NCBI RefSeq assembly: GCF_045037415.1
Contig: NZ_CP173438.1
Source: Escherichia coli
GTDB taxonomy: Bacteria > Pseudomonadota > Gammaproteobacteria > Enterobacterales > Enterobacteriaceae
Reading direction: 5' to 3' (one strand)
DNA length: 64,000 nt
Positions 6,001 through 15,000 of this stretch are shown here, in pieces. The position numbers were made by a program. Numbering within the stretch: position 1 is the stretch's first letter; every line of letters begins with the position of its first letter.

Positions 6001-9000
6001 GTCACTTTCGCTGCCATTGCAGAGGGGGAATATCACCTCTGATGCCGTATTTAACTTCTTCGATAACCTGTTACCCGATAGCCCGATTGTACGTGACCGG
6101 ATCGTTAAACGTTATCATGCTAAATCCAGACAACCGTTTGATTTATTGTCAGAAATAGGGCGAGACAGCGTTGGTGCCGTGACGTTAATCCCCGAAGATG
6201 AAACCGTAACGTGTCCGATAATGGCATGGGAAAAGCTTACTGAAGCCAGACTTGAAGAAGTATTAACGGCTTATAAAGCAGATATCCCGTTAGGCATGAT
6301 TAGAGAAGAAAATGACTTTCGCATCTCGGTTGCTGGCGCACAGGAGAAGACTGCGCTGCTCAGAATAGGCAATGACTGGTGCATTCCGAAGGGAATAACG
6401 CCAACGACGCACATTATCAAATTGCCGATTGGCGAAATCAGACAGCCCAATGCGACGCTCGATCTTAGCCAAAGCGTTGATAATGAGTATTACTGTTTGC
6501 TGCTGGCGAAAGAACTCGGGTTGAATGTTCCGGACGCAGAAATCATTAAAGCGGGAAGGGTGCGCGCGTTAGCGGTCGAACGTTTTGACAGGCGTTGGAA
6601 TACTGAGCGAACGGTTTTACTTCGCTTGCCACAGGAGGATATGTGCCAGACATTCGGTTTACCTTCATCGGTGAAATATGAATCAGATGGAGGCCCCGGT
6701 ATCGCGCAAATTATGGCTTTTTTGATGGGGTCCAGCGAGGCGCTGAAAGATCGCTATGATTTTATGAAGTTTCAGGTCTTCCAGTGGTTGATTGGCGCAA
6801 CGGATGGCCATGCAAAAAACTTCTCCGTATTTATTCAGGCTGGCGGCAGTTATCGGCTCACACCATTTTACGACATCATTTCGGCATTTCCGGTCCTTGG
6901 CGGTACGGGAATACACATCAGCGATCTCAAACTGGCAATGGGGCTTAACGCATCCAAAGGCAAAAAAACGGCAATCGATAAAATTTATCCGCGACATTTT
7001 CTGGCGACAGCAAAGGTGCTGAAATTCCCGGAAGTGCAGATGCATGAAATCCTGAGTGACTTTGCCAGAATGATTCCGGCAGCACTGGATAACGTGAAGA
7101 CTTCATTACCGACAGATTTTCCGGAGAACGTGGTGACGGCAGTTGAAACCAATGTGTTGAGGTTGCACGATCGGTTAAGCCGAGAATACGGTATTAAGTA
7201 AGATATGGGGTTTTGGTCGTTGTTAATGAGCAGAAATCATGAACCGCCAACGACTGGATTCGCCCTTGGTTTATATTGGTGCGCATAATGTATATTATGT
7301 TAAATTGATTATGAAGGTCCTTTACTTCACCATTCACATCCACACACAGATAAATCAATACGTTGTGATTTCTGACTTCCCTCCCGTTTCGGTAGAAAAA
7401 TCAACCTCTGTTCAGTGATGGCACACCATAGACCATGAGCTGGATAATTGCGTTGTTTACAGCAGCCAGCGCTTTGATGGCACTATATCCCTCACGCTTC
7501 TGAATATAATTCATAGCGCCGTGTAATTATCTTTAATCTCAAGTTAGCTAATCTCAGCATATCGTGTTGATATGCAATGTGAAATACAGAGAACAGTGAC
7601 TACAGCTGATGGAGGAAGCTATTTCCGATATTCGTCAACTTCCAAATATATCGTTTAAAACAGGTATCAGATATGAAAGCACTACTAATTACTGCATTAT
7701 TCATGGGATTCAGTTAGTTTCACCAGGCAAACATTAACCATAGCTAATGTTTATAGCCATATAAACTATTAGTACCTCTTGACCTTTCCTGACACTTCCC
7801 TTGTTCGCAATAATATTCTGTTTAGTCGCTGTTTATAAATAACATGCATAATGAAATCGTCATGTTATTTAGCGACATAAAATGTTTTTACAAATACTCT
7901 CTACAACAAGTGCAGCAATAAAATTGTTGTGAATAGGTGTCCTTGTAATTTAAAGATATTATCATTCTTCGTGAAATGTAATAACCATGGAAACTATATT
8001 CTCAGGGCAACATCCAATCAAGAATGATTCTTGTTTTATAAGCAATAACAGAATAACTTAATTGTTAACTCTCTTTATTCAGCTACTTAAATATAAATTT
8101 TGGAGAATTATGAAACTCAAACATGTCGGTATTATTGTCGTTTCTGTGTTGGCGATGTCGTCTGCTGCGGTAAGCGCAGCCGAGGGTGATGAATCAGTAA
8201 CGACCACTGTTAATGGCGGTGTAATTCATTTTAAAGGTGAAGTGGTAAATGCCGCTTGTGCGATTGATTCAGAATCAATGAACCAAACGGTTGAGCTGGG
8301 TCAGGTTCGTTCTTCTCGCCTGGCTAAAGCGGGTGACCTCAGCTCCGCCGTTGGCTTCAATATCAAGCTGAATGATTGTGATACCAATGTTTCCAGTAAT
8401 GCAGCTGTTGCATTCCTGGGTACTACTGTCACCAGTAATGACGATACATTAGCGCTGCAGAGTTCAGCGGCAGGCTCTGCCCAAAATGTCGGTATCCAAA
8501 TTTTGGACCGTACAGGGGAGGTATTAGTACTTGATGGTGCTACTTTTAGCGCTAAAACTGACTTGATTGATGGCACGAATATACTGCCGTTCCAGGCTCG
8601 TTATATTGCTCTCGGGCAGTCAGTAGCTGGTACTGCAAATGCTGATGCGACCTTCAAAGTTCAATATCTATAATTCACTCTTAAGGTGACTATGCGTCAT
8701 CTGAAATTGAAACAGGGTGTGTGTGGCATGGCTACGCACACCCGAGAAATTCACCAATGTTCATCTCATTATTAATGAAAAATGGTTTGTATTTTGGAGC
8801 GGTATGAAAAATCACATAATATCTAAACGATCAATAAACAACAGTAGTTAAACTTGCTGTTATTTAAAATATTTACTTGGTAGCAAGGTTTTCCTATCAA
8901 AAGAGAACCAACATTTATTACAAACGCATTAAGTCTGGAAACCCGGCGACTCGCCAATGTATTAGCAATATTTACCGATTGTCTGATGTAACGGTTTCCC

Positions 9001-12000: not shown

Positions 12001-15000
12001 CAGACCGGAATTCATACCGACTGGCGTGGCTATGCCATATTACCATTTGCGACAGAATATAGAGAAAATCGTGTCGCTCTTAACGCGAATTCCCTTGCAG
12101 ATAATGTTGAACTGGATGAAACCGTAGTCACTGTCATCCCAACTCACGGTGCTATTGCCAGAGCAACATTTAATGCACAAATCGGCGGGAAAGTATTAAT
12201 GACGTTGAAGTACGGTAATAAAAGCGTTCCATTCGGTGCAATTGTCACTCACGGAGAGAATAAAAATGGCAGCATTGTCGCGGAAAATGGTCAGGTTTAT
12301 CTGACTGGACTTCCACAGTCAGGGAAATTACAGGTTTCATGGGGCAATGATAAAAACTCAAACTGTATTGTCGATTACAAGCTTCCTGCAGTCTCTCCTG
12401 GAACCTTGCTGAACCAGCAGACAGCAATCTGTCGCTAAGGAACAATAGATTATGAAATACAATAACGTTATTTTCCTCGGTTTATGTCTGGGGTTAACCA
12501 CCTATTCTGCTTTATCCGCAGATAGCGTTATTAAAATTAGCGGGCGCGTTCTCGATTATGGCTGCACAGTCTCATCGGATTCGCTTAATTTTACCGTAGA
12601 TCTCCAAAAAAACAGTGCCAGACAATTTCCAACGACCGGTAGCACAAGTCCTGCCGTCCCTTTTCAGATTACGTTAAGTGAATGCAGCAAAGGGACAACG
12701 GGGGTGCGGGTTGCATTTAACGGTATTGAGGATGCAGAAAATAATACTCTGTTGAAACTGGATGAAGGAAGCAATACGGCCTCCGGTTTGGGTATAGAAA
12801 TACTGGACGGAAATATGCGTCCGGTGAAATTGAATGACCTTCATACCGGGATGCAGTGGATCCCATTGGTACCAGAACAGAACAATATTTTGCCTTACTC
12901 CGCTCGTTTGAAGTCAACTCAGAAGTCCGTCAATCCAGGACTGGTGAGCGCTTCGGCAACCTTTACCCTTGAATTTCAATAATCAGAGTCAGATATGAAA
13001 AGACTTCACAAGAGGTTCCTGTTAGCTACGTTTTGCACGTTATTTACAGCAACTCTCCAGGCCGCCGATGTCACTATCACTGTTAATGGTCGGGTAGTCG
13101 CTAAACCATGCACTATTCAAACCAAAGAAGCTAACGTTAATCTCGGGGATCTTTATACACGCAATCTGCAACAACCTGGTTCTGCATCTGGCTGGCACAA
13201 TATTACTTTGTCATTAACCGATTGTCCGATTGAAACAAGTGCAGTGACGGCAATCGTGACAGGTTCAACTGACAATACGGGTTATTACAAAAATGAAGGT
13301 ACTGCCGAAAATATTCAGATAGAGCTAAGGGATGACCAGGATGCGACGTTAAAAAATGGCGATAGCAAAACGGTTATTGTTGATGAGATCACTCGTAATG
13401 CACAGTTTCCACTTAAGGCAAGAGCTATCACGGTGAATGGAAACGCAAGCCAGGGAACGATCGAGGCGCTAATCAATGTGATCTATATCTGGCAATAACA
13501 TCAATTTGATTTTATTTGCCTCCTTTTTAAATCAATTTTTTAACCTTAGGATATATCATGGGTAAAACATTCAGTATAAAGGTCCTGTTCGGTATTTATC
13601 TTCTATTAATGGCAGGCAAAGTTTTTGCCTTTAGTTGTAATGTCGATGGCGGGTCAAGTATTGGAGCAGGTACAACCTCTGTTTATGTTAATCTCGATCC
13701 TGTAATACTACCGGGCCAGAATCTGGTTGTAGACTTGTCTCAGCATATAAGTTGCTGGAATGATTACGGCGGCTGGTACGACACTGATCATATAAACCTG
13801 GTACAAGGATCAGCTTTCGCAGGCTCCCTACAGTCATATAAAGGATCACTGTACTGGAATAATGTGACCTACCCCTTCCCGTTGACGACAAATACCAACG
13901 TATTGGATATTGGTGATAAGACACCGATGCCATTACCGTTAAAACTCTATATTACCCCAGTCGGAGCAGCCGGTGGAGTTGTCATAAAATCAGGGGAAGT
14001 TATTGCCCGTATTCATATGTATAAAATTGCCACGTTAGGAAGCGGAAATCCACGTAATTTTACGTGGAATATTATTTCAAATAACAGTGTTGTTATGCCA
14101 ACAGGCGGTTGCACCGTTGATAGTCGTAATGTCACCGTGAATCTCCCGGACTTTCCTGGAAGCGCAGAAATACCCCTTGGTGTATATTGCTCTAGCGAAC
14201 AAAAGCTCTCATTTTATCTTTCGGGTGCCACCACTGACAGTGCCCGACAAGTGTTTGCTAACACAGCACCAGATGCAACAAAAGCATCGGGCGTGGGTGT
14301 CTCTCTGATGCGTAATGGAAAAACACTGGCAACAGGAGAAAATGTCTCCCTGGGGACAGTAAATAAAAGCAAAGTACCTCTGGGTTTAAGCGCAACCTAT
14401 GGACAAACAGGAAATAAGGTTGCAGCCGGAGCCGTCCAGTCAGTCATTGGTGTCACTTTTATCTATGAATAATTGTGATTTTGACATTAGTCTATGCGCT
14501 CCATTCACGAAAATTGCGCGGATAATTATTTTGTGAAGGCTATTATCCTACACTTGTAAGAAAATCCGCGCACAATTGAAGCCAGAGTCTTATTTTTTAT
14601 ATTGAGAATTATGTTAATTTAAACCCTATGAGAGATGATGCTTAACTTATCGTATTTATACTACTCTATTATTTAACGATAATAGAGTAAAAATAGTAAG
14701 AGAGTAGTCCCCTACTCTTATATATCCATGTTGACGATAAACCCTATGTATATATTGTGCATCATCGCTATTACAAATCCTAATAATTCATTTCCACACA
14801 GGATAAGCAGATGAAGAAAAAAATTGAATCCTACCAGGGAGCTGCCGGTGGTTGGGGTGCTGTTAAATCCGTAGCGAATGCAGTACGTAAGCAGATGGAT
14901 ATACGCCAGGATGTTATTGCCATGTTTGACATGAATAAGCCAGAGGGCTTTGACTGTCCGGGATGTGCATGGCCAGATCCTAAGCACAGTGCGTCATTCG

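Follow-up and report, generated by a model that had tools for sequence, protein, structure and literature searches.

Near-identity of a fimbrial operon at the hipBA-ydeP locus of Escherichia coli to the F9 (Fml) system of CFT073

F9 (Fml) fimbriae of Escherichia coli have been described in strain CFT073, where they are encoded by the operon c1931-c1936 (Ulett 2007; Wurpel 2014, PMC3966885), and through structures of FmlH, the adhesin of strain UTI89 (PDB 6AOW, 6AOX, 6AOY, 6ARM, and others; Kalas 2018, PMC5866590). Here we compare with these systems an operon at positions 8110-14472 of a 64,000-nucleotide stretch of E. coli DNA (NCBI RefSeq assembly GCF_045037415.1, contig NZ_CP173438.1), which as a whole is referred to as the window. 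When cloned as pF9, CFT073 c1931-c1936 produced fimbriae, and F9 binding to Gal-beta1-3GlcNAc and lacto-N-tetraose has been reported (PMC3966885). FmlH binds the TF antigen, Gal(beta1-3)GalNAc, and the Tn antigen, GalNAc, with a competitive defect in CFT073 and vaccine protection also documented (PMC5866590). The type 1 fimbriae (fimAICDFGH) belong to the same chaperone-usher clade and share with F9 the order of major pilin, chaperone, usher, FimF-like adaptor, FimG-like adaptor, and two-domain adhesin. F9/Fml fimbriae matter for chronic urinary tract infection, low-temperature biofilm formation, and plant and environmental persistence, and FmlH is a drug and vaccine target.

With a probability of about 95%, the region carries, in intact form, the chromosomal chaperone-usher operon for F9 fimbriae (Fml; ydeQRST locus), and it belongs to a B2-like E. 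coli near-identical to strain SK1144. This is a routine genotype call, which leaves the published picture of the system and of its deletion in K-12 unchanged: the operon, its disruption in K-12 and phylogroup A, its repression by H-NS, and its low-temperature expression were already known (Wurpel 2014, PMC3966885), as was the structure of FmlH (Kalas 2018, PMC5866590). With the operon intact and the galactoside pocket unaltered, the source strain is a potential F9 producer, and one that should be sensitive to FmlH-directed galactoside inhibitors.

Six genes at the F9 locus

Six plus-strand open reading frames (ORFs) without internal stops occupy 8110-14472 in the ORF table of the window, the end coordinate counting the adhesin stop codon. 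They are separated, in order, by 361, 41, 13, 12, and 59 bp, and their products, as read from the sequences, all have plausible signal peptides, with the usual cysteine pair in the pilins. The genes are listed with product length in amino acids (aa), family match, and identity to the CFT073 protein.

8110-8673, plus strand: F9 major pilin, fmlA equivalent (CFT073 c1936 side); 187 aa from ATG; NCBIfam FimA-type major subunit, 3.2e-51; identity 186/187
9035-9745, plus strand: PapD/FimC-type periplasmic chaperone; 236 aa; Pfam PapD_N, 1.5e-39, and PapD_C, 4e-11; identity 233/236
9787-12438, plus strand: outer-membrane usher; 883 aa, uninterrupted; NCBIfam fimbrial usher, 1.6e-296; identity 875/883
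12452-12982, plus strand: FimF-like adaptor (YdeS); 176 aa; NCBIfam FimF, 2.6e-71; identity 173/176
12995-13498, plus strand: FimG-like adaptor (YdeR); 167 aa; NCBIfam FimG, 5.3e-76; identity 166/167
13558-14472, plus strand: two-domain tip adhesin FmlH (YdeQ); 304 aa; Pfam FimH_man-bind, 1.2e-76, and Fimbrial; identity 301/304

The operon as a whole was compared with that of CFT073, and the UTI89 FmlH lectin domain was taken from the PDB. The six proteins are 98.3-99.5% identical to those of c1931-c1936, with 19 amino acid substitutions in all, and CFT073 agrees in gene order, chromosomal site, and the length of each protein (Ulett 2007; Wurpel 2014, PMC3966885). The operon is flanked by hipBA on its 5' side and ydeP on its 3' side (upstream neighbors tam, on the minus strand, hipB, and hipA; downstream neighbors ydeP, safA, and ydeO), a context that agrees with the F9 description of Wurpel 2014. 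Positions 7202-14810 match the SK1144 and NR301 chromosomes of E. coli at 100% identity, the RefSeq annotation of SK1144 contains the same six genes, and over 49.7 kb the window and SK1144 differ by two single-nucleotide polymorphisms and one 2-bp indel at 7234.

Features of the individual products are those of a FimA-type, gamma-1-like chaperone-usher system, namely a PapD-like chaperone, a full-length usher, secreted pilins, and a two-domain tip adhesin. The major pilin has a signal peptide and a Cys50-Cys90 pair. The mature chaperone begins AVALGATR and contains both R8 and K112, the subunit-anchoring Arg8/Lys112 pair; its gene could start at ATG 9026 (239 aa) or ATG 9035 (236 aa), and the second is more likely because GGAGA lies 9 nt upstream of it and RefSeq places the start there, whereas GGAGA abuts the ATG at 9026. 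This refinement stays within 8110-14472. In the usher, Pfam placed domains at residues 43-195 (PapC_N), 213-795 (Usher, covering model positions 1-549 of 549), and 804-867 (PapC_C). Orthology to CFT073, the mapped f9 promoter, and a galactoside pocket of the FmlH type further place the operon within F9/Fml.

In the adhesin, a signal peptide of 24 aa precedes the mature protein, whose residues 1-160 form the lectin domain and residues 161-280 the pilin domain. The lectin domain corresponds to the crystallized UTI89 FmlH construct, residues 1-160 (PMC5866590), and is identical to it at 158/160 positions (PDB 6AOW, E = 5e-106), with ten further entries and 5LNE/5LNG also matching. Kalas et al. 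2018 described binding loops at residues 10-15, 44-53, and 132-142 and ligand contacts at F1, Y46, D53, K132, N140, and R142 (PMC5866590); all three loops and all six contact residues are the same in the window adhesin as in 6AOW. The sole lectin-domain differences from UTI89 FmlH are Q27L and A121S, both outside the binding loops and both also among the differences from CFT073. Exact 61-mers spanning the L27 codon occur in 406 complete E. coli genomes and those spanning the S121 codon in 537, so that L27/S121 is a minority lineage allele, though not a rare one. A correspondence of FmlH Q27 to the pathoadaptive site V27 of FimH was considered and dropped, as the alignment puts Q27 at FimH N29.

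A preliminary description of this DNA had proposed a complete six-gene F9/Fml operon in canonical order, and the uninterrupted ORFs with their Pfam and NCBIfam support, together with the matches to c1931-c1936 and 6AOW, agree with it on both counts. The protein alignments and pocket inspection that it suggested gave equal lengths to CFT073 and retention of every galactoside contact, and its remark that the locus is usually silenced by H-NS is in line with Wurpel 2014 (PMC3966885).

Several points qualify this assignment. The chaperone matches the NCBIfam FimC-like model (8.4e-77) below its equivalog cut-off (257.5 versus 327), and the usher falls slightly short of the PRK15193 cut-off (985.8 versus 995); these scores say that the proteins are not FimC and not that named usher, and they do not imply a defect. 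No convincing plus-strand intrinsic terminator was seen past the adhesin gene in a terminator scan and in the sequence itself. L27/S121 may affect binding, although the allele occurs in several hundred complete genomes. Finally, expression, assembly, and glycan binding in the source strain are predictions from sequence. The family assignments lie far beyond chance, and nothing in the sequence speaks against F9.

The f9 promoter region and expression

In CFT073, the f9 transcription start was mapped by rapid amplification of 5' cDNA ends (5'-RACE) to a G 251 nt before the pilin ATG, with -10 hexamer CATAAT, -35 hexamer TAGTCG, and an 18-bp spacer (Wurpel 2014, PMC3966885). Over the 300 bp that precede the pilin ATG, the window and CFT073 agree at 299/300 positions, and the promoter was located by direct comparison of the sequence with the published hexamers; a consensus promoter scan did not pick out the mapped promoter and showed no enrichment over shuffles (18 found versus 20.2 expected). 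The noncoding features of the locus are as follows.

7306-7712, unstranded: variable 5' spacer; 407 bp, with no ORF longer than 59 aa
7823-7859, plus strand: f9 promoter; -35 TAGTCG at 7823-7828, 18-bp spacer, -10 CATAAT at 7847-7852, start G at 7859, 251 nt upstream of the pilin ATG at 8110
7836-7846 and 7861-7871, unstranded: perfect 11-nt inverted repeat from a repeat search, TAAATAACATG and CATGTTATTTA, 14 nt apart
7860-8109, plus strand: AT-rich 5' leader; ~250 nt, GGAG preceding the ATG by 7 nt
8715-8743, plus strand: 13-bp stem-loop 41 nt past the pilin stop, without a U tract
14695-14718, unstranded: hairpin in the 338-bp spacer before ydeP (start 14811), terminator-like only on the minus strand and weakly indicated

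Established chaperone-usher biology and the papers cited suggest how such an operon would work, the window itself providing the genes, the promoter, and the galactoside pocket. A sigma-70 promoter at 7823-7852 would start the transcript at 7859, and H-NS, by occupying the AT-rich sequence of promoter and leader, would keep f9 mostly off at 37°C, with relaxation near 20°C and in the inflamed bladder. Subunits would be exported across the inner membrane via Sec and capped by the PapD-like chaperone through donor-strand complementation involving R8 and K112, and the usher would then polymerize them by donor-strand exchange, taking first the adhesin, next the FimG-like and then the FimF-like subunit, and finally the major pilin in many copies. 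At the tip, the adhesin would bind glycans with terminal Gal(beta1-3)GalNAc, Gal(beta1-3)GlcNAc, or GalNAc, which may confer low-temperature biofilm formation and a fitness advantage in chronic urinary tract infection.

The alternative that survives best concerns expression in the source strain and not the identity of the operon: the genes may be intact yet effectively cryptic, H-NS silencing together with the shortened 5' region preventing natural formation of the organelle, such that a silent gene set is decaying here as it has in phylogroup A. H-NS binds the 251-bp f9 region of CFT073, where putative H-NS motifs lie at +8, +14, +57, and +89, and represses the operon at 37°C, a temperature at which F9 was undetected in the wild type, detection requiring deletion of hns or growth at ~20°C (PMC3966885). 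The promoter region here is poor in G+C (32.6% over 7500-7999), and disruptions of the operon recur across E. coli: they affect 17 of 42 genomes surveyed by Wurpel 2014 and, in our comparison, consist of insertion sequence (IS) elements (genomes H6, H13, and H14) and partial deletions (H20, H21, H28, and H29). In this strain, however, the six frames have been kept at 98-99.5% protein identity to a functional operon, and the promoter and leader match, with the one difference given above, a CFT073 promoter that is active at 20°C, where the wild type expresses f9 and forms F9 fimbriae and F9-dependent biofilm (PMC3966885). In addition, loss of FmlH costs fitness in chronic urinary tract infection (PMC5866590), and across the species the lectin domain shows unusually strong conservation (0.003 substitutions per site; PMC3966885), which indicates purifying selection. 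We therefore regard a cryptic operon as unlikely, while giving it more weight than any other alternative.

Somewhat less probable are two refinements of the F9 assignment. By analogy with distal FimH polymorphisms that tune mannose binding, L27 and S121 could shift the dynamics or affinity of the lectin domain from outside the pocket, or the palindrome at 7836-7871 could be a dedicated operator. The palindrome encloses the -10 box and the transcription start, is the same in K-12 and CFT073, and goes unmentioned in the available portions of Wurpel 2014 (PMC3966885). Its cognate could be a dimeric regulator dedicated to f9, for example one encoded by the alternative helix-turn-helix (HTH) or LysR genes of the variable 5' spacer, and such an operator, if real, would add a layer to the known control by H-NS and temperature.

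The 5' region of f9 is variable, with three alternative putative regulators reported (Wurpel 2014, PMC3966885). Blastn comparisons with K-12 and Nissle 1917, the annotations, and the ORF list indicate that the spacer at 7306-7712 has neither the K-12 segment, a different 451-bp sequence with a yneL-type HTH pseudogene, nor the ~2-kb insert (acetylxylan esterase, LysR pseudogene, and SDR oxidoreductase) that separates hipA from the f9 promoter in CFT073 and Nissle. The spacer is a mosaic: of the CFT073-type insert it has the initial ~50 bp and, from the opposite end, 108 bp, whereas ~100 bp at 7508-7607 match neither K-12 nor Nissle and may be the scar of a third variant of the region.

Within the operon, the segment 8674-8780, which contains the stem-loop downstream of the pilin gene, folds at -35.9 kcal/mol (z = -4.83), and none of 200 shuffles was as stable. 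By likeness to other fimbrial operons, the stem-loop may act as an intercistronic mRNA stabilizer or as a partial attenuator favoring an excess of pilin. An Rfam scan of 7000-15000 at E <= 1 returned no family.

The K-12 deletion and the ancestry of the operon

Annotation of K-12 BW2952 places a frameshifted HTH pseudogene after hipB and hipA, followed by ydeT, ydeS, ydeR, ydeQ, and ydeP, and the pilin and chaperone genes are absent. The annotated ydeT is an "usher, missing N-terminus" of 408 codons, equivalent to usher residues 476-883. The preliminary description had given just such a remnant, ydeQRS plus a fragmentary usher without pilin or chaperone genes, and it was right in every particular; a circumstance that it named as fatal to its claim, the same six genes in K-12, does not obtain, as K-12 carries a ~3.28-kb deletion. 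By blastn, window positions 7002-7305, 7713-7931, and 11212-14900 align to BW2952, and 7932-11211 have no K-12 counterpart.

7932-11212, unstranded: segment deleted in K-12; ~3,281 bp, with the junction ambiguous by one G

The K-12 junction reads ...TTGTTGTG/GAACC..., a single G being common to both sides. The deletion takes the leader beyond its first 73 nt, both the pilin and the chaperone genes, and codons 1-475 of the usher gene, and the sequence resumes exactly at codon 476. K-12 retains the f9 promoter, with -35 TAGTCA (one mismatch) and the same -10 box and transcription start. The deletion joins the retained promoter to usher codon 476, and through it K-12 and about a quarter of complete genomes have lost the capacity for F9. 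What remains is well preserved: K-12 YdeS, YdeR, and YdeQ, all intact, share 96.7-97.7% identity with their window counterparts (172/176 for YdeS against the FimF-like protein and 163/167 for YdeR against the FimG-like protein), and the C-terminal 408 aa of the usher are 98.0% identical. Because the register at codon 476 is exact, the junction overlap is a single base, and the promoter is the same, K-12 is best read as a clean internal deletion of a once complete operon.

This bears directly on whether the operon might instead be a recently acquired horizontal island that K-12 never possessed in full. Its G+C content (41-45%) is below that of most flanking core genes (46-55%), and its 5' flank is mosaic, as such an origin would suggest. 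Against it stand the internal-deletion signature in K-12 and the population counts, which cover 5,426 complete E. coli genomes queried with 7202-14810: 5,414 of these have some match to the query, at the same chromosomal site. Horizontal acquisition is accordingly highly improbable. At least 80% of the query is held contiguously by 3,560 genomes (66%), a figure that is an upper bound on intact operons, since some of these carry the IS insertions mentioned above, and the K-12 deletion junction, sought with a 200-bp probe, is present in 1,375 (25%). In Wurpel 2014, the operon was intact in 25 of 42 genomes, disrupted in all phylogroup A genomes, and wholly absent from none, and the authors considered it ancestral to E. 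coli (PMC3966885). The intact operon is the majority, ancestral state in the species.

Other partial deletions of the same operon were seen in strain Esc4 (NZ_OZ369460.1; H20), which covers only 79% of the query and is 100% identical to the window elsewhere, and in the three further genomes named above. The variety of these deletions indicates that independent decay at the f9 locus is frequent.

Type 1 fimbriae and other loci of the window

The window adhesin has the same fold as FimH and retains its F1, N46, D47, and D54, yet the two are only 48.9% identical overall and 45% in the lectin domain, compared with 98.8% for FmlH. The mannose-pocket residues of FimH, Q133, N135, D140, and F142, are replaced by K132, A134, N140, and R142, the substitutions (Q133K, N135A, D140N, and F142R) by which the pocket is recast as a shallow galactoside pocket in FmlH, and in the tyrosine gate Y137 has become L136 and I52 has become D51, so that only the equivalent of Y48 is retained. 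The near-complete match to FmlH, set against ~49% identity to FimH, and the replaced pocket residues identify the adhesin as FmlH and not FimH. A receptor specificity of its own, which the preliminary description had predicted for the organelle, is consistent with an intact galactoside pocket and with the loss of these four pocket and two gate residues.

Control of the two systems also differs, type 1 fimbriae being governed by DNA inversion (fimB/fimE/fimS) and F9 by H-NS and temperature. No ORF in the interval from hipA to the pilin gene exceeds 59 aa, which leaves no fimB/fimE-like recombinase ORF, and the inverted repeats found upstream are only 9-11 nt long, none resembling the ~300-bp fim switch flanked by recombinase genes. 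No fimI-sized ORF lies in the 361-bp gap that separates the pilin and chaperone genes, and a decayed fimI-like gene was not apparent among the contents of this gap, a strong hairpin and unrelated-looking ORFs of at most 92 aa that were inspected without a homology search. Although the pilin and the two adaptors score above the NCBIfam equivalog cut-offs for FimA, FimF, and FimG, with RefSeq names following suit, and although the adhesin matches FimH_man-bind and aligns with FimH end to end, there is next to no chance that this is a type 1 (fim) operon with a mannose-binding FimH, given the adhesin's divergence from FimH, the missing fimB/fimE-like, fimI-like, and switch elements, the sub-cut-off chaperone, and a location between hipBA and ydeP instead of at fim.

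RefSeq/PGAP labels the F9 pilin in 8110-13498 "fimA: type 1 fimbrial major subunit FimA"; the labels "fimF" and "fimG" are attached to ydeS and ydeR in some genomes. These names come about because the F9 paralogues score high enough to pass the NCBIfam equivalog thresholds, and automated inventories could consequently tally two "type 1" operons.

Elsewhere in the window, several loci differ from K-12. At 5305-5613, tam lies directly beside hipB, an arrangement common to CFT073 and Nissle, and the ~15-kb block that occupies this site in K-12 (a frameshifted ECSE_1600-family autotransporter, lsrK, lsrR, and lsrACDBFG, for AI-2 uptake) is absent. Only a C-terminal remnant of the M16 metallopeptidase gene pqqL is found between ydeM and gadB (~21670-22587), where yddA, yddB (a TonB-dependent receptor gene), and full-length pqqL of K-12 are missing by comparison of the SK1144 and K-12 annotations. 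At ~27868-30455, only ~160 bp of the diguanylate cyclase gene dosC remain, frameshifted, upstream of the phosphodiesterase gene dosP, which is intact, and osmC directly follows dosP, the ddpXABCDF genes that lie 3' of dosP in K-12 being absent. A RelE/ParE-family (HigB-like) toxin gene at ~35056-35617 is annotated as frameshifted beside an intact HigA-family antitoxin gene, yddM, which would then encode an orphaned antitoxin. Finally, a sensor-domain diguanylate cyclase gene at 336-1754, in the position of dgcF, is intact where K-12 has an N-terminally truncated pseudogene, making this the second locus of the window at which the K-12 copy is degenerate.

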